64,000 nucleotides of DNA from Eledone cirrhosa (Eukaryota), in the NCBI GenBank assembly GCA_964016885.1, contig OZ024741.1, positions 223,138,001-223,202,000 of the forward strand. The letters run 5' to 3'. Position 1 is the first letter of the stretch. The number at the start of each line of letters is the position of its first letter. Shown piece by piece: positions 22,601-64,000 of this stretch. The position numbers and the translations under genes were made by a program. The notes beneath the pieces are model-generated. The model saw only the letters and a list, made by a program, of their open reading frames with translations, ran no database searches and was not told where the DNA came from.

Positions 22601-25250
22601 GTCATGTTCAAAAAGGAATGGAAAAGATGGGAAAGACCACTTACCTTACTTCTCGTAGAAGAAGGATGGTTTCTCCATCCTTCTCACTATTTGTGGCCTC
22701 CTCCGGAAGGATGTCCTTATAAATCCTCCTGGAGAGTGCTTGTTGGAAGTCTCCGATGTCCTTGGGGAATTTTTGTTTTAGTCGCAAAGCGAAACCTACA
22801 GTCAGTAGGCACCTCTTAACCAAATATACACCCCAATCCACTACCCCTACCCTATCCTCCCACTCCCACCAACACCACCCTCTCTCTATAAAGTTGGTAC
22901 CACAACATCCAGTCCAAATAAATGAGATAAATGAGATCGAGATCGTGTAGGTGTCACGAGAAAAAACACACAGTCCACGCTGTAATGTGGTCGTGTAGGT
23001 AACATGGTAAAAAGTTCCTAGTTCCACACTGTAAATGTGGTTGGTGTTAGGAAGGGCATCCAGCCGTAGAAAACCTGCCAGATAGTCCTATATGAGCGAG
23101 ACATGGTCACCTGACCAACCTTGCCTCAAGTGGGACAACTCCCGTCTAACCCATGTTAGCGTGGAAAATGGACGTTAAACGAAGATGATGATGATGATGA
23201 TGTCGTGTACGTTTTCTGTGTGATGCGAGTGATTTGTATGTGTGGAGGTGGTGTGAATTTTTGGGGTGTTGTGTAGTCTTTTTCTGTGATGCTGGTGTTG
23301 TGTTGGATGTAGTGTAATAATTGGTTATTGTTCAAATTTAATGCTGTGTAGTGTGTATCGTTTTGGTTGTTTTGTTTTGTTTGCGTTTTTTGTGGGTTTG
23401 TTTCTGTTTTACTTTTTGGTGACTTTTGTGGTCTTGGTGATGGTGGTGTTGGGGTTAATGATGGTGATGGTGTTGGTGTTTGTGGTGATGGGGGTTGGTG
23501 ATGCTGGTGTGGATGGTGGCATAGCTGTCCTAACTTTTGTTAGTTTATTTGTTTCCTCCTGTATTTTGTTTTTGGAGGAGGAAGGAAGAACTTTTTATTT
23601 TTGGGGTTCTTTTTCTTTTTTTCTTTTTCCTGATACAGTTTCCCAGTCCTCGTCGTCACAATCTGTCTCCAGTTGCGATAGGTCGGGGAGTGGAAAATCC
23701 TCCACAGGCATTGGCTTTGGTTGTGGCGTGGTGGATGGTGGAGGCACTGGTGTTAGTTCTGGCGCGGTGGTGGTGTTGGTTTTGTTACTGTTGCTGGGGT
23801 TGTTGCTGCTATAGTTGCTTCTGTTGTTGCTGCCATTTCTGCTGCTGGTGGTGTGATAGTTGAGTCACTGGAGTGGGTAAGAGAGGTGGCCTCAACTTTT
23901 TAGCCTGAGGGCAGAAGGCCTTTAGGTGGGTACCTTCACCACAAATGACACACCTAGGCCTTCTGCCCTCGACGATCACGGTGAGGTGGCTGCCGTCAGT
24001 GAGGTCTATCACCTCTGGAATTTCCTCAATGTTTTTTGGGTCCTCTTGGATCAGGAGCACCATCCCAGATCCAGACCAGTTCTCCTGCTTTTCTTTTGTT
24101 ATTTCAATTATTTTCGTGTTGGACTCGATGCCGGCGAGGACGGCAGCCATTAGCCAGGGAATTTTGATGGCCGGTGGAACGTGGGTCATCCGGATCTTGA
24201 CGAGTCTCTGACCACAATAGCTTGGGACAAGTGTGAAGTCGTCGTTTCTTAATGGGGCCATGGAGTTCCCTCTGGCTTCCTGTGGTGTTCCATATTTCTG
24301 CCCACGTCTGATGTGGATTTTTTTTGCCCACACATGTCCCAAAGCTTTTTGTATTTAGGACTCGGATGCCCGTTCCACTCGGCGTGATTCTGTGTTTATC
24401 GTCCGATAAGACACGGTGCATAGGTGCCGATGCTCCATCTTATTAGGTGGTGAGTGGGGGTGGGGTGGGGGTTGAGGCTGACCCTGTACCCATTTATTTT
24501 TACCATTCTCTTGGCTTCATTTAATTCATCCTGGATTACCTCGATTGTTCCGCTTTGCTTGGCTGCTTTGGCAAACGACACTTTGTTTTTCGGTGGTGTT
24601 GATGTTGTTGTTGTTATTCTCATTGTTGTTGTTGCTGTTGTTGTTATTGTTATTTTTAGTTTCAGTTGTGGTGGAGGTGGTGGTGGTGTCAGTGGTGTTT
24701 GGCGTGGAAGAGTCGATTCTGGGTGAATCCGTTTTGATGTCACGAGATAATAATTTTTTTTTTTGGTTTCTGTTGTCACTATGGTGGTGGTGGTGGTGGT
24801 GGTATCAGTGGTGTTCGGTGTTCTTTTTGACATTGTGGTGGTGGGGGTGGCGGCTTTAACACCTGCAGTTATTGGTAATGGCGGGAAATCCATGTCTTTA
24901 TGCGACAATTCTAAATAATTTAGACTGCATTTAATTATATTTTCAGTGTTGGGAACCGTAGCAAGGCTTACAATGGGGTTGGAGGTGGGGGAGGGGGTTG
25001 TTGGTCTGTTAAAAACAGTAAATTTGTCGTCCATGTTTTTTTTTTTCAAAAAAATATTTTGTTTGATAAATAAAAAGTTTAAGTTTTGAGCTCAAGGCCC
25101 CAATATTTTTTGTGTCCTTTTCAGAAAGCAATATATGTGAACTTATAAACACTTAACAACAAAAAATTTCCATAACTGGCAATTTGAAACAACTGAAAAC
25201 AACAAACCTTTGTGGAGCTCACGTTAATACGATTTCCTACGTAGGTCGCC
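19616..25250 (-). mobile_element. Near full-length but inactivated Tx1/L1-clade LINE (ORF1 with CCHC knuckle; ORF2 with APE endonuclease, internally deleted RT and C-terminal zinc finger)
   Basis: ORF1 pieces 24396-25049 and 23809-24342 (CVICGEGTHLKAFC); ORF2 pieces 22003-22611 (SINVRVL, AVYAP, LGDWN), 21302-22045 (TDHK, GPGYWKLN), 20736-21122 (NFRPRTLLNTEFKILAKVLA, DQPKAFDRVDH) and 19933-20748 (CPRC...ETVLHALIQC); AATAAA followed by (ATT)n tail. Confidence 0.92.
22783..23202 (+). mobile_element. RTE 3'-UTR fragment nested antisense inside the Tx1-like ORF1 region
   Basis: near-identical to 57163-57645 and 12075-12475; (GAT)n tail. Confidence 0.85.
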
Positions 25251-42762: not shown

Positions 42763-43361
42763 GTGGGTGTCTGTGACCTATATACACTGGTCACAGACAC
42801 ACACACACACATATATGTATATTTAGAAACCCTTCCTATTTAGCAGGAAATATTTGCTACACGCATCCTCTCCTAACACAAGTTATATGATACATATGAC
42901 TTAATATTCAGTCACCAAATTCGAGCTAGATACAGTAATGCTTATTTGATTCTTTGAAGTCACCTGTTATAATTTCATTCAACAACACCACCATCTCTCT
43001 CTCTCTCTCTATGTCTATCTTTCAATCTACTCTCTCTCAATGATAATCTCTTTCTCTCTCTCTATTCATGAAGGTACCCAGAAAAACCCTGTATCTCGAG
43101 AACACGTGATTCGATTTAGATGAAACTTGTTTTATTCCATTTGTATTCTCATTTCAGGGGCAATTTCCTTTCAAAGTATTTTCCCATTATGCGCCATTTT
43201 GGCTGCATTAAATTACAGACAAGCACATAATCACACAGTTTTAGTAGTATATAGATAACAGCAACAACAATGACAATTAGTGATGATAATAATACTGACA
43301 ATTATAAGGATGAATAAATGTACCAAAATAGAGGGGAGTGGTTCAACCGTTTCAACATTTA

Positions 43362-46300
43362 TTAAGATTCAATCGAAGGAAGGGTTCCCTCATAGCCTTT
43401 TTTACTTATGAGCCAAAATGTAGTCAGAGCCCGTCCAGCAACAGTCATTTCCCCTCGTAGCTCAGTTTCATAGCCTCCAAGTTCATCAAGAATTTTCACT
43501 GTATGTTCACTGAGCTGAATACGTAAAGGTTCCGAACTGGATTCCATTGTGGCTGCAATTAGCATTGTATCTCCAAAGAGGGTGTAACGAGGCATCTTTA
43601 AACCTACCACTCCAGCTACAACAGGTCCAGAATGAACACCAATACGCAACAGGAGTTTACATTTGGGTAAGTGTGGTACTTTCATTGCTAACATGGTTAT
43701 TACTAAGTCCATTGCTGCTGTTGTAATTTCACCTGCATGGGCATTTCCGTTTCGTTCTGGGACACCACTTGCAACAACATATGCATCTCCAATAGTCTCC
43801 ACCTTGTAGACATCATATTTGTGCAATATGGAGTCAAACGTGCTATAGAGGTTATTCAGAAGATCAACTACTTGCATGGGTTGACTGTTCTTCGCAATTG
43901 TTGTAAAACCAACTATATCACTATAGAATACAGTGACACAGCTGAAGTCCTCTGGTTCCACTTTATTCCCATGTTTTAATTCTTCCACTACTTTTTTGGG
44001 TAACATTTGACTAATGATATTATCTACTTTTGCCTTTTCTGCTTCAAGGTCATGGGTGCGCTCAATCACTACTTGCTCAAGGTTATTAGAATAAGACTCC
44101 AGTAATCGAATTAAGTTGTCCATTAGTTCTCCCTTTGTTGGGTAAATATTATCCAACACTAAAAGAAGTTTAGAAAATGTAGGTCTGATCAGAGGTTCAT
44201 CATTCCACACCTCTTCAAGCATTTTGAGGAATTTTTTCTGAGTTGTTTTCCCTTCTGGTAAAAGTTCACTTTTAAGTTGTGGTCGAATAACAAAGATATC
44301 TCCACCAATTGACTGCCATATTTTCTTCTCCTCTCCCAGAACAGGACTATTTTTTTCAGCTATAAGATCCAAAATACTACTAACGGGCAGAAACATCTGT
44401 TCATAAGCAAATGGTACATCTCGAGTGACAATTTCACTGGCAATTATTCCAAAGGAATAGACATCCCCTTCTTTGGTACCCATTTGAATATCATTTAAAG
44501 CCTCAGCAGATGTTAGTAGTTCAGGCGCTGTCCAAAGAAGCTCATGCATCTTCCTTAATTCACTCTCCCACTCAAAATCTTCTTCAGCCATAAGGTAATT
44601 TCCATAGCGAATTGATGGACAGCCAAAACTGGTCAAACGAATGCACCAACGATTATCCAGTAAACAGTTTGAAGATTTGAGACGTCCATGAGAACCAATA
44701 TTAGTTTTGTTGTGAATGAATTCCATACCACTACAAATGTCTTTTAGAAAAGAAAATCGGAAATCCCAGCCAAGGTGTATGGCATCATTGACAAGAATAT
44801 CTTCAAGACTACCCTTACTTGCTGGCTCTATAAAAAAAGACACATTTGGATACGTAAGACAAGCTCCACCGTAAATGATTAAATTTTTGTGATTTAAAGT
44901 TGTCAATTCAACCATTTCCAGTCGGACTGCTTCATCATCGAGATCAACAGTTCTACAGTTCAAACGTTTCACAAACCATTTCTCACGCTTCCAAGTATAC
45001 AATTCATTAGATATTCGGTTGACATGTGGTCCAGATGAATATTTCTTCACATCGGTTTCCTGATTATCAACTTTTGAAACTTCATCCCACAGAACAAGCC
45101 ACTCAAAGTTTGCCAAAGCAGTCCTAAGGTGGATGCGTTTAATGAAATACCGCATCAGTAGATATATAATGCATATGAGAAAAATTATAGAACAACCAAT
45201 TGGAGCAAGAATAGCTGCAAGATGTATTGAACAGGTTCCACCAAGCCACATTGATGAAATGCACACACATTCTCCAGGCATTACGCACTTGCCATGAATG
45301 CATTTGTTTTCACATACTGGTTCCTTACAATTAGGTCCAGACCAGCCAATGTAACACATACATTCGTTTGGTCTATGACAAAAGCCATGCTTGCACGGAC
45401 ACTGTACCGTTGTGCAATTATTTCCCTCATATCCAGGGAAACATTTACAGGTATTCTCTTTGATGCACTTGCCATTACTGAAGAGAGTAACATCTTCCTG
45501 TGATAACATATGACCACAGCTTTCTTCACATGTAAAAGGCGGTATTACCCACTCCTGACGTTGCATGATTTCAGATGGCCATGGTTGACCAGCTTCTTCA
45601 ATTAATTTATCGTCGTACCGGCTAACCACTCCTGTATATGAAGTATATTTTCTCAGGTTAGCTACAGATTTGGGAATGACTAATGGTGGTATCGTTAAGT
45701 TATATGGAGGTAAATTCAATGGAGACTTCACTTCATAAATATACTCACGTGGTGTTGCACCTCCATATTCAATAAGCCTAATTGGAAGAGCTACTAAATT
45801 AGGAGCAGTTACAGTATCAGTGATAGGATTAACCAAAATAATATTTCCAGTAAAGTCAGTTCTTCTACCTTGATGATTAAGAGCCACCTTTCCTGACAAA
45901 CCAACGAACTTAACCTTTTTCATTTCATTTCCAATTTCATCTCCATAAGCAGTCATTTGGCGGGAAACTATGTTGCTTATTGCTTGAGCCATCAACCACA
46001 TACCATCATAACCAATTGCCAAAAAAGATGCTAGTTCTTTATTTGGATATGTTGCTTTACTTCCTAAATACTTAGTTCTATCAATACTGTAAAATCTTTC
46101 GAGTACATGTATCCATTTTTCTGTTTTGAAGTTACTAAATTTGAAAGTTTGAAAAAAGAGTAGTGACCCGCGATAAGCAATGGTACATTTTGGTTCTATC
46201 TGGCAAACAGCTTCATTCATCAAAGGAAAGGAATGAGCATATTCATTTAAAAAAAGCCATTGGTAATTATCAAGTGTAGAAATACCAAATCGGATTCCAG

Positions 46301-48428
46301 AACGCAAAATATATGGCAAAGATCTAATAGAAAAGCATATAATTATTTTTGTCCCAGCCTCCTTTAGTTGTCTCATCTCTTCACCATAAAATTCTGGTTT
46401 CCAACTGGAATCACTGAAAGAATCAAATTCTGCAACATTCACCTTTGTTTTAACTTCAATATTGAATGCATTCACTTTGTTGTTGAATTCAGTATCAATT
46501 GAGCAATTGCTGCTGGTGATAACTGACACTTTCGTCCATTTTCTTTCTTTACAAGCATTCAGAAAAAAATCGTAAACGACTGACGATTTCCAGCAGATAC
46601 TATTGTATGAATTGTCTCCTAAAAAGTAATCATCTTTGTCAGTCAAAGAAATAACGGGCAGGTTTTCTACAATTGTATTTCTGGCAATGGCTTTTGTGAT
46701 CAATGGATTTGATGACAGAAGGATACCGCGCAATTCCGATTCGCTATTTTTATGCACTTCCCTATGTATTTGGTACTGTTGAATACTAAATTCTAGGTCA
46801 TCTTTAGTATTGAATGATTCAATTGTAACTGACATGCCATACTGTGTAAAAATTCCAGGAAGTTGCCCTGAGGTTATGTCACTAGCAGCAAATTTTACAA
46901 AAGTGTCTATATGTGGATATGGGTTTTTAACTGTTCCAGTTACATTAAAATTCCCGAGATGTCCGATGTGAACTTGCCCTGTCACCTTAAAAGCTGGTGT
47001 TTGGACACTTACACCTTGATATACAGTAGAGAAAATTTCTAACCTTACCGAATCAATAATTTCACATATTGAACCTCTCAGCTCCAACAAACCATCTACT
47101 ATCATCCTTGACATGTCTGATGAAAGACATTTGTTTGGAGGGATCGTTTTAATATAAATGTCTAATTTTGAATCAGGACCAGAGTAAATTCTTTTTCCTT
47201 TATCATCAATAATCATTATTTTTATTTGTCCCGGTATGGGAAAATTTCGAGTAATTTTGATAGGTGAAGTAGCTGATTTTAAATTGTGAATAATTTTTAA
47301 ATTTTTAAATTTCTGGGCTTCAACTGTAATATAATTTGTGAAAGTCATACCTGGAATTCCTGCCAAAGTGGGCTTAGTTAAAGGAGGAAACTCAATATAG
47401 TCTTCGTATGAGTGGCTTCGTCCTAAAAGTGTATCATCATAGCAGGTTTTACAATTTGGTATTCTGAACCATGGATCTCTCGCCATATACATAGTTAAAT
47501 TCAGGTTAAAGCCAGCTACAACATCTAAAATCCTAATATCTTCAAAGTTAACTTTACCAGCCACGGCTTGTTTTCGAATAATTACATCGTTTGTACTTTG
47601 ATGTATCATGGTTGAATTGCCTGCCAGTCGGACTGCAGTGATTTTCAAAAGCATCTTTAAATTCTTTTGGAAATAAAATTTTTTATAGCGATACGGTACG
47701 GTCAACTCTACAAAAGCGATGGAATCTAGGCCTGTCGTAACAATGTTACCTTCGTTATCATGTATCTCAGCTGCAACAGTAAAACCTGTGTTGGCTGTGG
47801 CTACAGTTGGCGGTTGTTCGGTGATGACTAGTTTAGCAGCAGGGGTGGTTATATTGATAGGATGTGTGCTTGTGAGAATGTTTAGCTTGGGTACTTCAAT
47901 TTTATATATTCGGCTGGTGCTTGGCATTTTATTCTCTTTATGATAATGAATAACCCAATCAATTATGATGGTTTTATTGAACACTTTTGTTTTTAGAGTG
48001 GTTGGCCCAATATCTGAACCACATGTCATGTAATATTTGAAGCGATTATATCTCTCAGGAAAAAACACATCAGGATTAGTGTTCTGACATAGCTTACCAT
48101 CAGAGTTCATCCAGGTATCATTTTCTGTAGAAGATATACTGGTCACTAATACTTCCATGTTGTGTAGTGAGTCATCAACTTTACTTCCATTAAATGTATT
48201 TATATAGGCAAAAATCGGATAACTGGTAACTTCGTTTAATGGTACTGAGTACTTCATCTTATGTGTACTGGTAGGTATAATTGCAGGAGGTGAGTTTTGA
48301 TTGTCCAAATTAATCTGATACTTTAAAGCACTACCCAATAACATTTGCTTGTAAAGTGTAACTAAAAGCAGTAGATTAAACAGGATGATGTGACTGTTAT
48401 AATAATGAGTACGCTTCAAGGAGTACAT
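43362..48428 (-). CDS. Single-pass receptor guanylyl cyclase-like protein (natriuretic-peptide-receptor-like), 1688 aa, intronless CDS: signal peptide, N-terminal extension, ANF-receptor/PBP1-like domain, 3 EGF repeats, TM, kinase-homology domain, coiled coil, class III cyclase domain
   Basis: 5067-nt uninterrupted ORF; hydrophobic N-terminus; F-x-GLSGKV-x-L-x3-G-x-R motif ending the PBP domain; Cys spacing of EGF repeats; TM LAAILAPIGCSIIFLICIIYLLM; HGRLKSSNC and LLWTAPELL (KHD); YSNNLEQVVIERT; SDIVGFT, YKVETIGDAY and RIGVHSGPVVAGVVGLKMPRY (cyclase). Confidence 0.96.
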   Translation of the reverse strand: MYSLKRTHYYNSHIILFNLLLLVTLYKQMLLGSALKYQINLDNQNSPPAIIPTSTHKMKYSVPLNEVTSYPIFAYINTFNGSKVDDSLHNMEVLVTSISSTENDTWMNSDGKLCQNTNPDVFFPERYNRFKYYMTCGSDIGPTTLKTKVFNKTIIIDWVIHYHKENKMPSTSRIYKIEVPKLNILTSTHPINITTPAAKLVITEQPPTVATANTGFTVAAEIHDNEGNIVTTGLDSIAFVELTVPYRYKKFYFQKNLKMLLKITAVRLAGNSTMIHQSTNDVIIRKQAVAGKVNFEDIRILDVVAGFNLNLTMYMARDPWFRIPNCKTCYDDTLLGRSHSYEDYIEFPPLTKPTLAGIPGMTFTNYITVEAQKFKNLKIIHNLKSATSPIKITRNFPIPGQIKIMIIDDKGKRIYSGPDSKLDIYIKTIPPNKCLSSDMSRMIVDGLLELRGSICEIIDSVRLEIFSTVYQGVSVQTPAFKVTGQVHIGHLGNFNVTGTVKNPYPHIDTFVKFAASDITSGQLPGIFTQYGMSVTIESFNTKDDLEFSIQQYQIHREVHKNSESELRGILLSSNPLITKAIARNTIVENLPVISLTDKDDYFLGDNSYNSICWKSSVVYDFFLNACKERKWTKVSVITSSNCSIDTEFNNKVNAFNIEVKTKVNVAEFDSFSDSSWKPEFYGEEMRQLKEAGTKIIICFSIRSLPYILRSGIRFGISTLDNYQWLFLNEYAHSFPLMNEAVCQIEPKCTIAYRGSLLFFQTFKFSNFKTEKWIHVLERFYSIDRTKYLGSKATYPNKELASFLAIGYDGMWLMAQAISNIVSRQMTAYGDEIGNEMKKVKFVGLSGKVALNHQGRRTDFTGNIILVNPITDTVTAPNLVALPIRLIEYGGATPREYIYEVKSPLNLPPYNLTIPPLVIPKSVANLRKYTSYTGVVSRYDDKLIEEAGQPWPSEIMQRQEWVIPPFTCEESCGHMLSQEDVTLFSNGKCIKENTCKCFPGYEGNNCTTVQCPCKHGFCHRPNECMCYIGWSGPNCKEPVCENKCIHGKCVMPGECVCISSMWLGGTCSIHLAAILAPIGCSIIFLICIIYLLMRYFIKRIHLRTALANFEWLVLWDEVSKVDNQETDVKKYSSGPHVNRISNELYTWKREKWFVKRLNCRTVDLDDEAVRLEMVELTTLNHKNLIIYGGACLTYPNVSFFIEPASKGSLEDILVNDAIHLGWDFRFSFLKDICSGMEFIHNKTNIGSHGRLKSSNCLLDNRWCIRLTSFGCPSIRYGNYLMAEEDFEWESELRKMHELLWTAPELLTSAEALNDIQMGTKEGDVYSFGIIASEIVTRDVPFAYEQMFLPVSSILDLIAEKNSPVLGEEKKIWQSIGGDIFVIRPQLKSELLPEGKTTQKKFLKMLEEVWNDEPLIRPTFSKLLLVLDNIYPTKGELMDNLIRLLESYSNNLEQVVIERTHDLEAEKAKVDNIISQMLPKKVVEELKHGNKVEPEDFSCVTVFYSDIVGFTTIAKNSQPMQVVDLLNNLYSTFDSILHKYDVYKVETIGDAYVVASGVPERNGNAHAGEITTAAMDLVITMLAMKVPHLPKCKLLLRIGVHSGPVVAGVVGLKMPRYTLFGDTMLIAATMESSSEPLRIQLSEHTVKILDELGGYETELRGEMTVAGRALTTFWLISKKGYEGTLPSIES

Positions 48429-48469
48429 TTTTCAAACTTCATACGTCCTTGTTACGGAGAAGATTGTAT

Positions 48470-48492
48470 CTAGAAAAACAAATACAAACAAT
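48470..48492 (-). promoter_or_regulatory. Probable splice acceptor of a 5'-UTR intron, 41 nt upstream of the cyclase ATG
   Basis: minus strand reads ttgtttgtatttgtttttctAG|ATAC..., a polypyrimidine tract followed by AG. Confidence 0.55.
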
Positions 48493-49274: not shown

Positions 49275-51247
49275 GTGTCCGGTCGGCTGACCTTATCTTG
49301 CTCATACGGGAACTGATTCTGGCTTGATTTCTACAGCTGGATGCCCTTCCTAACACCAACCTCATTTACAGTGAGTGCTGGGTGCTTTTTTTCCATGGCG
49401 CCTACACGTCCACTTTACAGTGTGGGCTGGGTGCTTTTTTGCCGTGGCACCTCCACGACCACTTTGCAGTGGGAGGGGGTAGGGGCATATTGTCTATATG
49501 CTTCAGCTTCAGCTTGTACCCATGGGGTGTCGGGTCTTCTGTATTACTGCGCGATGCCAGAGGTCACGGTCGTGTGTCATCACCTTTGAGAGGTGTAATT
49601 GGGTAAGGTCGGCTTTTATCACATCATCCCAGGTCTTCTTGGGTCTCCCCACTCCGTGGCTTCCATCGACTTCTAATGCTCTGCACCTTTTTATGCAGCT
49701 GTCATCCTTCATACGCATCACATGTCCATACCAATGCAACCTCCTCTCCTGCACACAACATTTGATTCCTCTTATGCTCAGTCTCTCTCTCAATTCATTT
49801 ATGCTTCGCTGTTCGTGTATATTACTATTACACATTCATCGGAGCATGCAAGATTTGTTTCTTTCTAATCTATGCAAGTCTTCCACAGACAGCGCCAAGG
49901 TCTCACTACCATGTACCATTGCTGTTCGTATACACACATCATACAGTCTGCCTTTCATTTTGAGGGAAAAGTCTTTTGCAGCTAGCAGTGGCAGTAGCTC
50001 CCTGAACTTCTTCCATCCCGTTCTTACCCTAGTTATTGTACTTTCTGAACACCCACCTCTGCTGCTAATTCGGTCACCTAGGTAGCAGAAGCTATCTACT
50101 GTTTCTACAGAGCCCTCCCAGAGTTTGGTGGTACTTGTTTCCTGTGGCTGTTTGCTGCTTGCTGTCCCAGCGCAGCTGCTACATGTGAAGCCTACATTCT
50201 TAGTTAAGCTTCCTGAGATCCCACTACATCTCTTGTGTACCCCTTGTTTGCATTTGGGGCAGAGAATGGAGTTCTTACCTACACCTTTCCTACATACTGA
50301 GCAAGGCCATTTCCCTGAGGGAATCTGGGTTCTGGTTTCTCGTCTACTTACAAGGACCTTAGTCTTTGTCAGGTTGACTTTGAGACCCCTTCTTTCTAGC
50401 CCCTGCTTCCAAGTTTGGAATTTCTTCTCTAGTTCTACCATAGATTCAGCTATAAGTGCGAGGTCATCTGCATACAGGAGTTCCCATGGGCATCCGGTTT
50501 TAAACTCCTCCGTTATTGCCTGCAGAACTATGATGAACAGGAGAGGGCTAAGAACAGATCCCTGGTGGACACCGACTTGTATGCTAAATTCCTCACTATA
50601 GTCATTGCTAATCCTAACTTTGCTGACTGCTCCCCATTACATGGCTTTTACAGCTTTCACAAGCCATTCATCTACTCCTAGTTTTCTAAGAGCCCACCAG
50701 ATTATAGCACGGGGAACTCTGTCAAAGGCTTTCTTGAGATCGATGAATGCCAGGTAGAGTGGCTTACTTTTAGCTAGGTACTTTTCCTGTAACTGCCTCA
50801 CAAGGAAGAAGGCATCAGTGCTGCCTCTTCCTGGCACAAACCCAAATTGCATCTCATCTCGTTTCACTCGGTCCCTAATCAACTGTGTATAACTCTTTCT
50901 GTTACTTTCATTACCTGGTCCATCAGCTTTATACCTCTATAGTTTCCTCTATCAAGTGTATCTCCTTTACCCTTGTAGCAATTGACAATGATGCTACTGC
51001 ACCAATCCTTTGGTATGACACCTTCTAGTATAACCTGGTTAACAATACGTGTGGTTGTGGTGTGACCTACCGACCCAGATGCCTTCAGCATCTCGGCAGC
51101 TATACCCGATGGACCGGTTGCCTTCCCCGTCTTCATATCTTTGATTGCCTTACTTACTATGCTGCAGCTGACTTGTACTGCTGGCCCCTCTATAGGGTCT
51201 ACTTGGGGTAGGGTCTCTTCTTCCCATGCATTCTCCTCATTTAGTAA

Positions 51248-52744: not shown

Positions 52745-55700
52745 ATTTGGACCAATCATAAGACAACGGCCTATGCTATCACTTCTTCTGGTTGCTTTTC
52801 GATATGATGGATGGACTAAGGAATTTCTGGAGAGTCTGAAGAATCTGGACACTCGGAGACAATGCCAAAGATAACGACAAATTCACCTCATGCTGCCGGA
52901 CGAAAGGGCAAGGTCTCCTCCTCCTTGTTTTGGCCGCGGATGGCCAACATAACTACAACCCCATCCCCCTCACTGCGCCCCAGCCACCAAACGTAATCCA
53001 AAACTTCAGAGTTGGTACCATGAATGTAGGCACCTTAAAAGGTCACTCTAACGAGGTTGTAGAAATGCTTGAACGTAAGGAGGTTGATGTTTGCTGTATC
53101 TAAGATACCAGGTGGAGGGGCGGGTCTGCTAGATTCATTGTGGGTAAAAAACGATGCTATAAGCTTTTCTGGGTGGGAAATGACAATGGGCTGGGTGGAG
53201 TAGGATCATGTTAGCAGAAAAATGGGTGGATAAGATAATAGACGTAAATAGAGTGAATTACAGAATAATTAAAATAAGACTTGTTCTAAATAGAACTACT
53301 GTGACAGTAATATCTGCGTACGCACCCCAATCCGGACTGCCTGGCGCTATAAAAGACAGATTCTATGAGACACTGATGCTCACTACCTCTCAAATAACCG
53401 ACAGTGACTATATAATTATTGCTGGCGACCTAAATGGTCACGTTGGACAACATTGTGATGGCTATGACGGAATCCACGGAGGCTATGGGTTTGGTACTAG
53501 AATTGAGGAAGGCTCCAGAATCCTGGAATTCTGTGACGCAAATAACCTAACTATCTGTAACACTAACTTCAAAAAACGAGACAATCACTTGATCACCTAC
53601 AGATCAGGGGAACATACCAGCCAGGTAGATTATATCCTTACCAGAAGACGTGACAGAGTGTCTGTTGTAAACACTAAATCCCTCCCCCATGAAGAATGCA
53701 CCTCCCAACATAGACTGATAATTAGCGACCTCATAGTCAGGACGAGACGTACTCAACAACAGAAGAGGACTATCCTCAGGAGAAAAATATGGAAGCTAAA
53801 GAACCCCACAGCCAGTAATAAATTTAAAAGCATATTACTTGATGCTTTTGACAGTAAGGAAGAGCATTTAGAGTCGTACAATATAGAGGAACAGTGGGAA
53901 TTCCTGAAAGCAAACCTGCTGATGGCGGCAGACGAAGTCTGTGGCTGGAGCAGGCCTATAGGCAAGAGGAGAGTAACGTGGTGGTGGAACAGTAAGGTGG
54001 AGGAATCAATTAAGGCCAAAAAGCAGGCTTGGAAAGTATGGCGGGATGGGGGAAGTAGAGAAGACTATCAAGTGGCCAGGAGGGAAGCTAGGAGACAAGT
54101 GTACTTCGCAAGAAGGGAAGCAGAGGAAAGAAAGTTCAAGCATGTTCTACAATGCGAGGACCAAAAACGTGAGGTGTTCAGGATTGCTAGGCACTGTGTC
54201 AAGGAAAACCGTGATATTGTCGGGGAGAAGTGTGTCCTTAATGATGATGGTGTACTTGCCATCACTGACGCTGATAAGAAGGTAGCTTGGAAGTGTCACT
54301 ACGAAAGGCTACTAAATGAGGAGAATAAATGGGAGAAAGACAGTCTCCCCCACATTGATCCAATAGAGGGACCAGCAGTGTTAGTCGAAGGTAGTATAAT
54401 AAGTAAGGCAATCAAAGATATGAAGACGGGTAAGGCGGCTGGGCCTTCGGAAATAGTTGCTGAAATGCTGAAAGCTTCTGGAACGGTGGGACACACCATG
54501 GTCACCCGGATAGTAAACCAAGTCATACAGAATGGGGTTGTTCCGAAGGACTAGCGTAGCAGCATCATCATTAACTGCTACAAGGGTAAAGGAGATGCCC
54601 TAGATAGAAGTAACTATAGAGGCATTAAATTAATCGACCAAGTCATGAAGGTCACAGAAAAAGTAATAGCGCAACTAATCAGAGAGAGAATTGATCTAGA
54701 TGAAATGCAGTTTGGGTTTGTGTCAGGTAAAAGTACCACAGACACTCTTTTCCTTGTACGACAAAGAAACAGAACCCAGATCCCCTCAGGGAAATGGCCT
54801 TGCTCAGTATGTAGGAAAGGTGTAGGTAGGAACTCCATTCTCTGCCCCAAATGCAAACAATGGGTACACAAGAGATGTAGCAGGATCTCAGGAAGCTTAA
54901 TTAAGAATGTAGGCTTCACATGCAGCAGCTGTACTGGGACAGCAAGCAGCAAACAGCCACAGGAAACAAGTACCACCAATCTCTGGGAGGGCTCTGTAGA
55001 GACAGTAGACAGCTTCTGTACCTACGTGACCGAATTAGCAGCGGAGGTGGGTGTTCAGAAAGTACAATAACTAGGGTAAGAACGGGATGGAAGAAGTTCA
55101 GGGAACTACTACCACTGCTAGCTGCAAAAGACTTCTCCCTCAGAATGAAAGGCAGACAGTATGATGTGTGTATCTGAACAGCAATGTTACATGGTAGTGA
55201 GACCTGGGCGCTGAAGGTGGAAGACTTATGTAGATTAGAGAGAAACGAAGCCTGCATGCTCCGATGGATGTGTAATAGTAATATACGCGAACAACAAAGC
55301 ATAAATGAATTGAGAGAGAGACTGAGCATAAGAGGAATCAAATGCTGTGTGAGGAGAGGCGGATGCGTTGGTATGGACATGTGATGCGTATGAAGGATGA
55401 CAGCTGCATAAAAAGGTGCAGAGCATTAGAAGTCGATGGAAGCCACGGAGTGGGGAGACCCAAGAAGACCTGGGATGATGTGATAAAAGCCGACCTTACC
55501 CAATTACACCTCTCAAAGGTGATGACACACGACCGTGACCTCTGGCGTCACGCAGTAATACAGAGTACCCGACCTCCCATGGGTACAAGCTGAAGCATAT
55601 AGACAATATGCCCCCACACCCTCCCACTGCAAGGTGGTCGTGGAGGTGCCAGGGCAAAAAAGCACCCAGCCCACACTGTAAAGTGGACGTGTAGGCGTCA

Positions 55701-58071: not shown

Positions 58072-58833
58072 CTGGACCGTCAGGGATAGTTGCTGAGATG
58101 CTGAAGGCATCAGAAGTAGGCACTAAATTGGTTGCATGCATCATCAATCTAGTTATATATGGTGGTGTCATACCCAAAGGCTGGTGCAGCAGTATTCTCA
58201 TAAATTGCTACAAAGGTAAAGGGGATACTCTAGAGACTAGCAATTATAGGGGCATAAAGCTGATGGATCAGGTTATGAAAGTGGCAGAGAGAATATTAGC
58301 GTAACTGATTAGAGAAAGGGTCAAATTAGATGAGATGCAGTTTGGTTTTGTGCCTCGGAAAAGTACAACAGATGCCCTCTTCTTAGTGAGGCAACTACAA
58401 GAGAAGTTCTTTGAGAAGAATAAGCCACTATACTTAGCTTTTGTTGACCTAGAGAAGGCCTTTGATAGGGTACCCCGATCTCTCATCTGGTGGTCCCTAA
58501 GGAAACTAGGTGTAGAGGAATGGTTTGTGAGGACAGTGCAAGCTATGTACAGGGGTGCTGTCAGTAAAGTGAGAGTAGGTATGGAGTTTAGTAAGGAATT
58601 CCAGATACAAGTAGGTGTACATCTGGGTTCAGTCCTCAGCCCGCTCTTGTTCATTATAGTCCTCCAAGCCAAAACAGAGGAGTTTAAGACTGGATGCCCA
58701 TGGGAACTTCTCTATGCTGATTATCTGGTTCTTATAGCAGAATCAGTAGAGGAGCTAGAGAATAAATTCTGGCTATGGAAACAGCAGTTGGAATCGAGAG
58801 GACTGAGAGTGAACCTAGCTAAGACAAAAGTGT
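58072..58833 (+). mobile_element. RTE RT fragment truncated at the start of the tandem array
   Basis: AGPSGIVAEMLKAS, MQFGFVP, DLEKAFDRV, ELLYADYLVL and VNLAKTKVL. Confidence 0.9.
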
Positions 58834-61800
58834 TGAAAAGGTTACTGGCTGGGGAAAAGTTACTGGCTGGGAAAGGTTACTAGCCAGAGAAAGGTTACAG
58901 CCTGGGGAAAGGTTACTAGCCGGGGAAAGGTTACTGGCCAGAGAAAGGTTACTGGCTGGGGAAAGGTTACTGGCCGGAGAAAGGTTACTGGCTGGGGAAA
59001 GGTTACTGGCCGGGGAAAGGTTACTGGCCGGGAAAAGGTTACTAGCCGGGGAAAGGTTACTGGCCTGAGAAAGGTTACTGGCCGGGGAAAGGTTACTGGC
59101 TGGGGAAAGGTTACTGGCTGGGGAAAGGTTACTGGCTGGGGAAAGGTTACTGGCCGGGGAAAGGTTACTGGCCAGAGAAAGGTAACTGGCCAGAGAAAGG
59201 TAACTGGCCGGGGAAAGGTTACTGGCCGGGGAAAGGTTACTGGCCAGAGAAAGGTTACTGGCCAGAGAAAGGTTACTGGCCAGAGAAAGGTTACTGGCCG
59301 GGGAAAGGTTACTGGCTAGAGAAAGGTTACTAGCCAGGGAAAGGTTACTAGCCGGGGAAAGGTTACTGGCTGGGGAAAGGTTACTGGCTGGGGAAAGGTT
59401 ACTGGCCAGAGAAAGGTTACTGGCTGGGGAAAGGTTACTGGCTGGGGAAAGGTTACTGGCCGGAGAAAGGTTACTGGCCAGAGAAAGGTTACTGGCCAGA
59501 GAAAGGTTACTGGCTGGGGAAAGGTTACTGGCTGGGAAAAGGTTACTAGCCAGAGAAAGGTTACTGGCCAGAGAAAGGTTACTGGCCGGGGAAAGGTTAC
59601 TGGCCGGGGAAAGGTTACTGGCCAGAGAAAGGTTACAGGCTGGGGAAAGGTTACTGGCTGGGGAAAGGTTACTGGCCGGAGAAAGGTTACTGGCCAGAGA
59701 AAGGTTACAGGCTGGGGAAAGGTTACTGGCCGGAGAAAGGTTACTGGCTGGGGAAATGTTACTGGCCGGGGAAAGGTTACTGGCCGGGGAAAGGTTACTG
59801 GCCAGGGAAAGGTTACTAGCCAGAGAAAGGTTACTAGCCAGAGAAAGGTTACTGGCTGGGGAAAGGTTACTGGCCGGAGAAAGGTTACTGGCCAGAGAAA
59901 GGTTACAGGCTGGGGAAAGGTTACTGGCCGGAGAAAGGTTACTGGCCAAGGAAAGGTTACTAGCCAGAGAAAGGTTACTAGCCAGAGAAAGGTTACTGGC
60001 TGGGGAAAGGTTACTGGCCGGAGAAAGGTTACTGGCCAGAGAAAGGTTACTGGCTGGGGAAAGGTTACTGGCCGGAGAAAGGTTACTGGCCAGAGAAAGG
60101 TTACTAGCCAGAGAAAGGTTACTGGCCAGAGAAAGGTTACTAGCCAGAGAAAGGTTACTGGCCAGAGAAAGGTTACTGGCTGGGGAAAGGTTACTGGCCG
60201 GAGAAAGGTTACTGGCCAGAGAAAGGTTACTGGCTGGGGAAAGGTTACTGGCCGGAGAAAGGTTACTGGCCAGAGAAAGGTTACTGGCTGGGGAAAGGTT
60301 ACTGGCCGGGGAAAGGTTACTGGCCAGAGAAAGGTTACTAGCCAGAGAAAGGTTACTGGCCAGAGAAAGGTTACTGGCCGGAGAAAGGTTACTGGCCAGA
60401 GAAAGGTTACTAGCCAGAGAAAGGTTACTGGCCAGAGAAAGGTTACTGGCCAGAGAAAGGTTACTGGCTGGGGAAAGGTTACTGGCCGGAGAAAGGTTAC
60501 TGGCCAGAGAAAGGTTACTGGCTGGGGAAAGGTTACTGGCCAGAGAAAGGTTACTGGCCAGAGAAAGGTTACTAGCCAGAGAAAGGTTACTGGCCGGAGA
60601 AAGGTTACTGGCCAGAGAAAGGTTACTGGCTGGGGAAAGGTTACTGGCCGGAGAAAGGTTACTGGCCAGAGAAAGGTTACTGGCTGGGGAAAGGTTACTG
60701 GCTGGGGAAAGGTTACTGGCCGGAGAAAGGTTACTAGCCAGAGAAAGGTTACTGGCTGGGGAAAGGTTACTAGCCAGAGAAAGGTTACTGGCCGGGGAAA
60801 GGTTACTGGCCGGGGAAAGGTTACTGGCCAAGGAAAGGTTATTGGCCAGAGAAAGGTTACTGGCCAAGGAAAGGTTATTGGCCAGAGAAAGGTTACTGGC
60901 CAGAGAAAGGTTACTGGCTGGGGAAAGGTTACTGGCCAGAGAAAGGTTACTAGCCAGAGAAAGGTTACTGGCCGGGGAAAGGTTACTGGCCGGGGAAAGG
61001 TTACTGGCCAAGGAAAGGTTATTGGCCAGAGAAAGGTTACTGGCCAGAGAAAGGTTACTGGCTGGGGAAAGGTTACTGGCCGGAGAAAGGTTACTAGCCA
61101 GAGAAAGGTTACTGGCCGGGGAAAGGTTACTGGCCAAGGAAAGGTTACTGGCTGGGGAAATGTTATTGGCCGGGAAAAGGTTACTGGCCAAGGAAAGGTT
61201 ATTGGCCAGAGAAAGGTTACTGGCCAGAGAAAGGTTACTGGCTGGGGAAAGGTTACTGGCCGGAGAAAGGTTACTGGCCAGAGAAAGGTTACTGGCTGGG
61301 GAAAGGTTACTGGCTGGGGAAAGATTACTGGCTAGAGAAAGGTTACTGGCCAGGGAAAGGTTACTGGTCAGAGAAAGGTTACTGGCCAGAGAAAGGTTAC
61401 TGGCCGGGGAAAGGTTACTGGCTGGGGAAAGGTTACTGGCTGGGGAAAGGTTACTGGTCAGAGAAAGGTTACTGGCTGGGGAAAGGTTACTGGCCGGGGA
61501 AAGGTTACTGGCCAGGGAAAGGTTACTGGCTGGGGAAAGGTTACTGGTCAGAGAAAGGTTACTGGCCGGGGAAAGGTTACTGGCTGGGGAAAGATTACTG
61601 GCTAGAGAAAGGTTACTGGCCAGGGAAAGGTTACTGGTCAGAGAAAGGTTACTGGCCAGAGAAAGGTTACTGGCCGGGGAAAGGTTACTGGCTGGGGAAA
61701 GGTTACTGGCTGGGGAAAGGTTACTGGCCAGGGAAAGGTTACTAGCCAGAGAAAGGTTACTGGCTGGGGAAAGGTTACTGGTCAGAGAAAGGTTACTGGC

Positions 61801-64000
61801 TGGGGAAAGGTTACTGGCTGGGGAAAGGTTACTGGCTGGGGAAAGGTTACTGGTCAGAGAAAGGTTACTGGCTGGGGAAAGGTTACTGGCCGGGGAAAGG
61901 TTACTGGCCAGGGAAAGGTTACTAGCCAGAGAAAGGTTACTGGCTGGGGAAAGGTTACTGGCTGGGGAAAGGTTACTGGCTGGGGAAAGGTTACTGGCTG
62001 GGGAAAGGTTACTAGCTGGGGAAAGGTTACTGGCCGGGGAAAGATTACTGGCTGGGGAAAGGTTACTGGTCAGAGAAAGGTTACTGGCTGGGGAAAGGTT
62101 ACTGGCTGGGGAAAGGTTACTGGCTGGGGAAAGGTTACTGGCCGGGGAAAGGTTACTGGCTGGGGAAAGATTACTGGCTGGGGAAAGGTTACTGGTCAGA
62201 GAAAGGTTACTGGCCGGGGAAAGGTTACTGGCTGGGGAAAGATTACTGGCTGGGGAAAGGTTACTGGCCAGAGAAAGGTTACTGGCTGGGGAAAGGTTAC
62301 TGGCTGGGGAAAGGTTACTAGCCAGAGAAAGGTTACTGGCTGGGGAAAGGTTACTGGCTGGGGAAAGGTTACAAGCCAGAGAAAGGTCACTGGCTGGGGA
62401 AAGGTTACTGGCTGGGGAAAGGTTACTAGCCAGAGAAAGGTTACTGGCTGGGGAAAGGTTACTGGCTGGGGAAAGGTTACTAGCCAGAGAAAGGTTACTG
62501 GCTGGGGAAAGGTTACTGGCTGGGGAAAGGTTACTAGCCAGAGAAAGGTTACTGGCTGGGGAAAGGTTACTGGCTGGGGAAAGGTTACTAGCCAGAGAAA
62601 GGTTACTGGCTGGGGAAAGGTTACTGGCCGGGGAAAGGTTACTGGCTGGGGAAAGGTTACTGGCTGGGGAAAGGTTACTGGTCAGAGAAAGGTTACTGGC
62701 TGGGGAAAGGTTACTGGCCGGGGAAAGGTTACTGGCCAGGGAAAGGTTACTAGCCAGAGAAAGGTTACTGGCTGGGGAAAGGTTACTGGCTGGGGAAAGG
62801 TTACTGGTCAGAGAAAGGTTACTGGCTGGGGAAAGGTTACTGGCCGGAGAAAGGTTACTGGCTGGGGAAAGGTTACTGGCCAGAGAAAGGTTATTGGCCG
62901 GGGAAAGGTTACTAGCCAGAGAAAGGTTACTGGCTGGGGAAAGGTTACTGGCTGGGGAAAGGTTACTGGCCAGAGAAATGATACTGGCCGGGGAAAGGTT
63001 ACTGGCCAGAGAAAGGTTACTGGCTGGGGAAATGTTACTGGCCGGGGAAAGGTTACTGGCCGGGGAAAGGTTACTGGCTGGGGAAAGGTTACTGGCTGGG
63101 GAAAGGTTACTGGTCAGAGAAAGGTTACTGGCTGGGGAAAGGTTACTGGCCGGGGAAAGGTTACTGGCCGGGGAAAGGTTACTGGCCAGAGAAAGGTTAC
63201 TGGCTGGGGATAGGTTACTGGCTGGGGAAAGGTTACTGGCTGGGGAAAGGTTACTGGCCAGAGAAATGATACTGGCCGGGGAAATGTTACTGGCCGGGGA
63301 AAGGTTACTGGCCGGGGAAAGGTTACTGGCCAGAGAAAGGATACTGGCCGGGGAAAGGTTACTGGCCAGAGAAAGGATACTGGCTGGGGAAAGGTTACTG
63401 GCCGGAGAAAGGTTACTGGCCAGAGAAAGGTTACTGGCCAGAGAAAGGTTACTAGCCGGGGAAAGGTTACTGGCCGGGGAAAGGTTATTGGCCAGAGAAA
63501 GGTTACTGGCCAGAGAAAGGTTACTAGCCGGGGAAAGGTTACTGGCCAGAGAAAGGTTACTAGCCAGAGAAAGGTTACTGGCCGGGGAAAGGTTACTGGC
63601 CGGGGAAAGGTTACTGGCCAGAGAAAGATTACTGGCCAGAGAAAGGTTACTGGCCAGAAAAAGGTTACTGGCCAGAGAAAGGTTACTGGCTGGGGAAAGG
63701 TTACTGGCCGGAGAAAGGTTACTGGCCAGAGAAAGGTTACTGGCCAGAGAAAGGTTACTGGCCGGGGAAAGGTTACTGGCCAGAGAAAGGTTACTGGCCA
63801 GAGAAAGGTTACTGGCCAGAAAAAGGTTACTGGCTAGAGAAAGGTTACTGGCTGGGGAAAGGTTACTGGCTGGGGAAAGGTTACTGGCTGGGGAAAGGTT
63901 ACTGGCCAGAGAAAGGTTACTGGCCGTGGAAAGGTTACTGGCCAGAAAAAGGTTACTGGCCAGAGAAAGGTTACTGGCTGGGGAAAGGTTACTGGCCGGG
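58834..64000. repeat. 18-bp minisatellite/satellite, consensus GAAAGGTTACTRGCYRGR, about 287 units, running off the window end
   Basis: strict 18-bp period; phase is unchanged from 58921 to 64000; a single 17-bp unit near 58868. Confidence 0.98.

Follow-up and report, generated by a model that had tools for sequence, protein, structure and literature searches.

The question raised by this locus is whether a receptor guanylyl cyclase (GC) with an ectodomain of about 1070 residues, encoded in Eledone cirrhosa, is a one-off assembly of domains or a member of an older family, and whether it can make cGMP by itself. The window, that is, the whole stretch of DNA analysed, is 64 kb long. The canonical homodimeric receptor GCs, GC-A to GC-G, differ from the window protein in having an ectodomain of one Venus-flytrap domain (~450 residues) adjoining the membrane. 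An earlier note on this DNA had pointed out the large, non-canonical ectodomain, and Pfam, hydropathy and fold models bear it out. The modules run from a likely signal peptide through three predicted Ig-like domains, a Venus-flytrap/ANF domain, three EGF repeats and a transmembrane (TM) helix to a kinase-homology domain, followed by a coiled coil and a cyclase domain (Table 1).

Table 1. Features of the receptor gene and its product, in positions of the window (aa, residues of the protein)
Feature	Position	Strand	Basis
Candidate splice acceptor (T-rich tract, then AG) lying 41 nt upstream of the ATG	48470..48490	-	sequence only
Whole CDS, receptor guanylyl cyclase, Ig3-VFT-EGF family, cephalopod clade A (alpha-like)	43362..48428	-	ORF and Pfam
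Likely signal peptide, aa 1-~34	48327..48428	-	hydrophobic peak at aa 13-32; family conservation starts just after; cleavage site inferred
Ig-like beta-sandwich 1, aa ~35-195, conserved Cys114/Cys136	47844..48326	-	AlphaFold model and structural search
Ig-like beta-sandwich 2, aa 196-372	47313..47843	-	structural search
Ig-like beta-sandwich 3, aa 373-485	46974..47312	-	structural search
Venus-flytrap (ANF/PBP type I), aa 486-966, long insertion near the end	45531..46973	-	Pfam and fold model
Three EGF repeats, aa 967-1068, 18 Cys	45225..45530	-	Pfam, Cys spacing, sequence matches
Single transmembrane helix, aa ~1070-1096	45141..45221	-	hydropathy up to 2.81
Kinase-homology (pseudokinase) domain, aa ~1140-1425	44154..45011	-	Pfam PF07714, E 4.3e-22 (match aa 1148-1422)
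Coiled coil / signalling helix, aa 1431-1490	43959..44138	-	aligns to GC-A and GC-C linker; weak HNOBA match
Class III guanylyl cyclase domain, half-site type, aa 1491-1674	43407..43958	-	Pfam PF00211, E 1e-53
AATAAA overlapping the stop codon, possible polyadenylation signal	43358..43363	-	sequence only

The stop-to-stop frame occupies positions 43362-48431 of the minus strand and gives 1688 residues when counted from the ATG at 48428. The coding sequence is a single exon without introns; a T-rich tract followed by AG suggests a possible intron in the 5'-UTR. Two Logan contigs, possibly from the same sample as the window and then not independent of it, cover the coding sequence with 0 and 2 differences. 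A frameshift or assembly artefact was ruled out because the frame is open, the residue losses described below are common to the nine rows of the clade to which the protein belongs (clade A), and the two Logan contigs match. Neither a second copy of the gene nor a gene of the sister clade (clade B) was found by tblastn within the 64 kb. The closest named protein is that of Octopus vulgaris, with an identity of 61% over the ectodomain and 71% overall.

The earlier note had put about 480 residues ahead of the PBP-like domain, which it started near position 46975; 485 residues precede the motif VHIGHLG, and residue 486 is at nucleotide 46973. Nothing in Pfam matched residues 1-530. The AlphaFold2 model of residues 34-490, built from a 26-row alignment, has a pLDDT of 89.7 and a pTM of 0.83 and is nearly all beta. 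Three separate ranges of this model (1-162, 163-339 and 339-452) each align to Ig-type sandwiches, including STAT, Rel, velvet, Runt, filamin, intimin and GH2 Ig domains, with Z of ~8-10 and rmsd of 2-3.5 per domain. The first sandwich (range 1-162), which no Pfam family matched, was aligned to 1uus (Z 8.5, rmsd 2.8, 109 aligned), the second to Rel, velvet and other Ig-type sandwiches (Z 8.6-9.6, rmsd 2.0-2.8) and the third to the Runt domain (Z 8.9, rmsd 2.5, 95 aligned) and a filamin repeat (Z 7.9). The extension is predicted to consist of three Ig-like beta-sandwiches. As the Z values are near those of common folds, they establish the fold, but neither kinship nor function. Foldseek with the three-domain model returned only low-TM matches to Ig arrays, and ESM Atlas gave only leads below 0.9 for the extension (Ig_SMCHD1, Big_1) and nothing family-specific for the Haliotis ectodomain. 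Residues ~175-250 are matched by repeats of large unnamed proteins, several of which carry bacterial Ig-type Pfam domains.

The Pfam family ANF_receptor (PF01094) matches residues 532-866 above its cut-off (E 2.4e-18), and the Venus-flytrap fold reaches about residue 966, the segment 867-966 being for the most part an insertion inside it. The model of residues 485-1069 (pLDDT 89.4) is closest to GABA-B (Z 28.1, rmsd 3.0, 384 aligned), followed by NPR-C (Z 26.2), the sweet receptor T1R (25.9) and GC-A (25.8), and Foldseek agrees. The modelling and structural search that the earlier note had proposed as a check thus assigned Ig-like folds to the extension and a Venus-flytrap to the ANF region. 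The gap in Z between GABA-B and NPR-C is only ~2 and the identity 11-15%, so that no ligand can be deduced. A PDB sequence search with a relative consisting of the Venus-flytrap only gave 0 matches. GABA-B and T1R are heterodimeric Venus-flytrap receptors (the PDB titles agree for T1R). Unlike these and the other class C GPCRs, such as mGluR, the window protein has a single TM helix and no seven-TM domain.

Eighteen cysteines at residues 967-1066 (nt 45530-45231) make up three six-Cys EGF units. The Cys-rich repeats that the earlier note had seen just outside the membrane do score as EGF, with Pfam EGF families placed at residues ~970-1071: EGF_2 (24.4 bits against a cut-off of 22.1, three stretches) and EGF_PEAR1L (45.7 against 37.5) both pass, and EGF_TEN is under its cut-off (39.3 against 65). 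The spacing, assigned there to the WIF1/tenascin type, is of the WIF1/Delta type, the nearest solved sequences being Delta-like, WIF1 (E 2.9e-7) and HHIP. A strict EGF pattern matched two of the three units, with 0 matches in 2000 shuffles. Three units are present in lophotrochozoan rows, four in six rows of the hydrozoan clade and five in three rows of the choanoflagellate clade, counts that leave out P0285 (pattern error), P0226 (no count) and P0043 (13 Cys, insertion). The hydrophobic segments at residues ~13-32 and ~1070-1096, located by hydropathy, correspond to a type I layout.

On the cytoplasmic side, the pseudokinase has HGRLKS (in HGRLKSSNC) where HRD is expected and the catalytic Asp is absent. 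The cyclase is derived from a receptor GC and not from soluble GC (sGC), because its best PDB sequence match is GC-A with E 1e-78, against 2e-42 for sGC alpha-1. In the description of the class III active site given in PMC2576301, monomer A contributes two metal-binding Asp, an Arg and the P-loop, and monomer B contributes Asn, Arg, Lys, Glu and Cys. These positions were compared in alignments to GC-A, GC-C and sGC alpha-1 and in a site table of 100 proteins and 3 controls. The window protein retains D1504 (nt 43919), E1544, D1548 (43787) and R1595 (43646). The Cys is replaced by T1616 (nt 43583), the Asn by L1623 (43562), the Arg by T1627 (43550) and the Lys by A1664 (43439), so that the protein has YTLFGDTMLIAATME where GC-A has YCLFGDTVNTASRME, and VAGR where GC-A has MKGK. 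The metal- and phosphate-binding half-site is kept and the partner-side Cys, Asn, Arg and Lys are gone, as is the C-terminal S-x-H-x-F-K tail of the family. By the established chemistry of class III cyclases, a homodimer of the window protein is very unlikely to be able to make cGMP. The domain is the best-conserved region of the protein and is not decaying, since it is 97% identical to that of the O. vulgaris orthologue, against 45-69% for parts of the ectodomain; among octopods, the identity of clade-A cyclases is 88-97%.

The first search gave 14 matches, 13 of which belong to the family; the named ones were all octopod, and a Sepia member appeared in a later search. Further members came from deeper searches: Haliotis, Gigantopelta, Tegillarca, Sinanodonta, Saccostrea and Strigamia. 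Among the best 120 of 6097 matches listed were Argopecten, Potamilus, Crassostrea, Mytilus, Dimorphilus, Hydra, Hydractinia, Clytia, Salpingoeca and Monosiga; these best 120 (8000 candidates scored) included no named member from vertebrates, insects, nematodes, echinoderms, anthozoans or sponges. Profiles of the Ig modules matched 45 of the 94 newly added proteins (all three modules in 15) and none of 29 conventional ANF-type receptor GCs. The three Ig-module matches in Salpingoeca are weak (2e-6, 5e-5 and 1e-4 at Z=1000) and collinear. The Monosiga protein has ANF and EGF domains and no Ig-module match, and all three modules were matched in P0285, labelled 'Opistho-2' in its source, which we take to be a filasterean.

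Phylogeny of the kinase-homology and cyclase region had been suggested in the earlier note, and the trees were built from these two domains only, the ectodomain being invisible to them. The family forms one clade in the first tree (59 of 83 rows, SH-like 99) and in the second (28 of 44 rows, support 100/99), for which LG+G4 was used with one unicellular cyclase as the root and the long-branched Strigamia left out. The animal rows have the choanoflagellate-type rows as their sister group (95/95), the conventional receptor GCs sampled fall outside, and P0285 is placed, weakly, just outside the family clade. Since trees of the intracellular part give one clade, the Ig/VFT/EGF architecture is inherited, and it is probably older than animals.

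The cephalopod rows form a clade (100/100) within which clades A (100/100) and B (100/99) are sisters; the split between them therefore came after duplication of a complete gene. In clade A, nine rows including the window protein, the Cys, Asn, Arg and Lys are each retained in 0/9, and the HxFK tail likewise in 0/9. Both Asp are kept in 8/9, and the P-loop Gly and the A-side Arg in 9/9. The 16 rows of clade B keep the Asn and Arg (16/16), the Cys (15/16) and the Lys (14/16, Arg in the other two), together with both metal-binding Asp and the A-side Arg (16/16). They are altered at the P-loop Gly (0/16, D or N instead), the Thr next to it (0/16) and the Gly ahead of the second Asp (0/16). The C2 domain of the adenylyl cyclase (AC) control has N at the P-loop Gly position, like some clade-B rows, and one of the 17 conventional receptor GCs, P0302, has Asp there; any effect of the clade-B changes would be judged from their position only. 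The site is complete in 15 of 16 other protostome rows (the exception is Strigamia) and in 15 of 16 choanoflagellate-type rows, and Cys, Asn and Arg are all present in 17/17 conventional receptor GCs. The Asn and Arg lost by clade A are missing also from human sGC alpha-1 and from the AC C1 control. As the rows within a clade are related, the counts stand for one event per clade and not for 9 or 16.

Complete loss of the site also occurs. Clade B contains three more cephalopod rows in which both half-sites are degenerate. The fully degenerate members of the family include P0006 (both Asp lost), P0035, P0186, P0188 and Strigamia P0043, so catalytically dead receptors serving another role are tolerated in it. 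The identity of the cyclase to that of Haliotis is 58-62% in five tested A rows with both Asp and 40-43% in two tested fully degenerate paralogues.

Both clades are present in all four named octopods that have an A gene: O. vulgaris, O. bimaculoides, O. sinensis and Argonauta hians. The searches turned up a single clade-A gene for each named octopod species, and several clade-B genes in some; in O. bimaculoides the A gene is LOC106877831, and LOC106875597 is among the B genes. The A and B genes are on different contigs in the named genomes, and several B models lie on one contig in O. vulgaris and in Argonauta; those of O. vulgaris resemble fusions of neighbouring copies. The clade-B ectodomain is likewise ~1070 residues long, with an EGF stalk equal in length to that of clade A.

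A comparable pair of groups is found in hydrozoans. The catalytic Arg is absent from 14/14 rows of group 1, and group 2 keeps Asn and Arg in 9/9 and the P-loop Thr in 0/9; 13 of the 14 and seven of the nine rows were assigned by the first tree and the other three by likeness, only four rows being species-named. Six of the choanoflagellate-type rows in the site table were likewise placed by likeness alone. Hydra has one copy of each group; two Hydra genes of the family are LOC100197876 and LOC100197588. In the Arg-less group, Ig-like module 3 is the sole Ig module retained, as judged from module HMM matches. A single origin of clade A and hydrozoan group 1 was rejected by the AU test (p-AU 5.7e-5), for which the groups were defined by their residue pattern, with the trees already known. 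The half-site pattern seems to have evolved twice, in cephalopods and in hydrozoans.

To the observed architecture, residue losses, sister-clade relation and co-occurrence of the two clades within named species a mechanism can be fitted. On balance, the window protein would be the alpha-like half of a heterodimeric receptor cyclase, paired with a clade-B paralogue; because its partner-side catalytic residues are lost, cGMP is likely made only when it is paired with the sister receptor. We lean slightly towards a complex in which each A+B pair would have one active site, the paired Venus-flytraps sensing the ligand and the EGF stalk relaying the signal. Binding of an extracellular ligand would make the Venus-flytraps open or close, as in GABA-B, T1R and GC-A, and the stalk would carry the movement on through the TM helix, the pseudokinase and the coiled coil. 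To the active site the A chain would contribute D1504, D1548, R1595 and the P-loop, and the B chain its Glu, Cys, Asn, Arg and Lys; the second catalytic site of the dimer would be dead. The Ig domains may serve as an accessory binding surface or as a spacer. The ancestral receptor probably had a complete site and worked as a homodimer, and this is how the snail, bivalve, annelid and choanoflagellate copies still look. Because one clade-A gene stands against several clade-B genes in some octopods, we propose that A is the shared subunit of a small receptor repertoire. A wider and tentative version is that an undescribed pre-animal lineage changed on two occasions, once in coleoid cephalopods and once in hydrozoans, from homodimers to obligate alpha/beta heterodimers, the octopod gene being a shared alpha for tandem, variable betas in combinatorial cGMP receptors for chemosensory or cell-contact cues.

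The pairing need not be symmetrical. All 16 clade-B rows retain both Asp and the A-side Arg, so a B homodimer may be active by itself, and perhaps only A depends on its partner. Taken further, clade B would be an active homodimer and A a non-catalytic modulator, either a dominant-negative or tuning subunit or an NPR-C-like receptor for ligand binding and clearance, signalling through its pseudokinase or not at all. Both Asp, the A-side Arg, Glu, Cys, Asn and Arg are indeed present in 15-16 of the 16 B rows, fully dead members of the family exist, and clade A has lost the HxFK tail. However, every A-side residue is kept in 8/9 A rows, and a mere decoy would not need a cyclase that is as conserved among octopods as that of clade A; three A-side positions are altered in all 16 B rows, and the same asymmetry arose separately in hydrozoans. 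We regard the modulator as rather unlikely, and pairing of A with B remains the reading preferred here.

If the window protein is a half-site subunit, its partner could instead be a complete cyclase outside the family, such as a conventional receptor GC, or a partner of either kind. The missing half could be filled in by any cyclase that supplies Glu, Cys, Asn, Arg and Lys, and conventional receptor GCs have the Cys, Asn and Arg throughout, but the reciprocal changes, the matching ectodomain and the equal-length stalk are found in the sister clade, which makes an outside partner improbable. That the protein is a weakly active homodimer, or uses another nucleotide, would agree with the retention of Glu1544 and both Asp; it is very improbable, as the ribose-orienting Asn, the transition-state Arg, the phosphate-binding Lys and the guanine-binding Cys have been replaced by small or hydrophobic residues. 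Least probable of all is the domain-shuffled receptor of the earlier note, taken as lineage-specific and as linking adhesion or mechanical input to a cyclase. Ig-like and EGF modules are typical of adhesion proteins, and the first, single-sequence search gave cephalopod names only, which hinted at a shuffle specific to cephalopods. This was overturned by the deeper searches, the module matches and the tree: the same layout is shared by cephalopods, gastropods, bivalves, an annelid, a centipede, hydrozoans and choanoflagellates, the module order recurs in the annelid and bivalve proteins and, by its three weak matches, in Salpingoeca, and the intracellular part by itself groups the family as one clade. 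These results contradict the recent shuffle; an adhesion or mechanical input may still act on the receptor. What the locus represents is apparently an undescribed receptor-cyclase family of pre-animal age, which is less exotic than a one-off domain shuffle.

Among known systems, GC-A/NPR1 and GC-C share with the window protein the Venus-flytrap, single TM helix, pseudokinase, coiled coil and class III cyclase. Unlike theirs, its Venus-flytrap is preceded by three Ig-like domains and followed by three EGF repeats, within 1688 residues in all, and their sites are complete whereas its cyclase lacks the Cys, Asn, Arg and Lys. With sGC alpha-1 and AC C1 it shares the retention of both Asp and the A-side Arg and the loss of the catalytic Asn and Arg, but sGC alpha-1 keeps the Cys that clade A lost, and the window protein is a membrane receptor in which Pfam finds no H-NOX or PAS domain. 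[quoted passage not shown] The window subunit likewise misses half of its catalytic site; ODR-1 can dispense with its ectodomain, whereas that of the window protein is large and conserved. The ODR-1/DAF-11 ectodomain is not known to have Ig or EGF modules. Because the cephalopod split nests among complete copies, in trees that include neither ODR-1 nor DAF-11, we infer that it is independent of theirs.

In the portions of the reviews available, ODR-1/DAF-11 is the one obligate heterodimeric receptor GC named, and the family would add two independent cases. With two cases and living complete 'before' copies in snails, bivalves, annelids and choanoflagellates, the passage from a homodimer to an alpha/beta heterodimer with one active site, a step also taken by soluble GC and adenylyl cyclase, would become directly testable. 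The family would also place a Venus-flytrap/EGF receptor cyclase ahead of the origin of animals, and it flags an expanded set of orphan receptors in cephalopods.

The earlier note had not recognised the architecture from described families and had considered that it might prove to be a known, widespread subfamily. It is widespread, but no description of an Ig3-VFT-EGF receptor cyclase was found in the literature searched, most subscription journals lying outside the search, and six accession strings gave 0 literature matches. In the available text of a GC family phylogeny 'EGF' occurs 0 times (PMC1435932); the accessible part of the oyster kinome notes 23 RGCs and none bearing EGF (PMC4883820), and the tables consulted on pseudokinase architectures of human, rodents and fly contain none with EGF (PMC2754085). 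Family proteins may nevertheless be listed in kinome tables: the Salpingoeca record is already named 'RGC/RGC protein kinase', and the database labels of the cephalopod members are only 'speract receptor-like' or 'gcy-4-like'.

The receptor guanylyl cyclase of the window is encoded by a single 5-kb exon, and several proteins of the cephalopod clade (P0006, P0009, P0011, P0034, P0035, P0184 and P0211) were called in full from ENA contigs between 12 and 144 kb long. In three distant fragments (P0116, P0133 and P0134) the likeness to the window CDS ends just past the second Ig domain, as if an intron at this point were common to all three. Together, the single exon, the relatives called in full and the fragment ends hint that introns may have been lost, or the gene retroposed, in cephalopods. 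The CDS beginning is overlapped by a short uORF, the ATG of which lies 14 nt 5' of the CDS start and out of frame.

Comparison of C-termini across the family showed that the S-x-H-x-F-K tail is present in most complete and beta-like members and is gone from both alpha-like groups (cephalopod clade A, 0 of 9; hydrozoan group 1, 0 of 14, for the final Lys). The active site is degenerate in both halves in P0035, P0186, P0188, P0006 and the Strigamia member, P0043. The contig of P0035 is as long as that of P0009, and the contig of P0006 as long as that of P0211, which suggests tandem dead paralogues.

None of the 18 other long window frames scanned resembled a cellular gene. Four broken LINE-type stretches comprise endonuclease, RT and zf-RVT pieces and two fragments that carry a PHD finger. 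A reverse-transcriptase fragment directly precedes the first copies (58837) of an 18-bp satellite, the unit of which varies at only a few positions. The satellite continues past the window end, and it accounts for the long 'ORFs', which measure 1599 and 1726 aa.

Minor features of the window and their coordinates
Feature	Position	Strand	Remarks
LINE-type piece, broken	19936-22683	-	
uORF	48442-48416	-	8 codons; read from sequence
LINE-type piece, broken	49839-50636	-	
LINE-type piece, broken	53184-55067	+	
LINE-type piece, broken	58305-58880	+	
18-bp satellite	58837-64000		consensus AAAGGTTACTGGCYRGRG; about 287 copies

Further unusual receptor-cyclase ectodomains, CUB+EGF and a kelch propeller with PBP, were seen in P0284, P0277 and P0288, records of unicellular origin, and they are joined to the same pseudokinase-cyclase tail.
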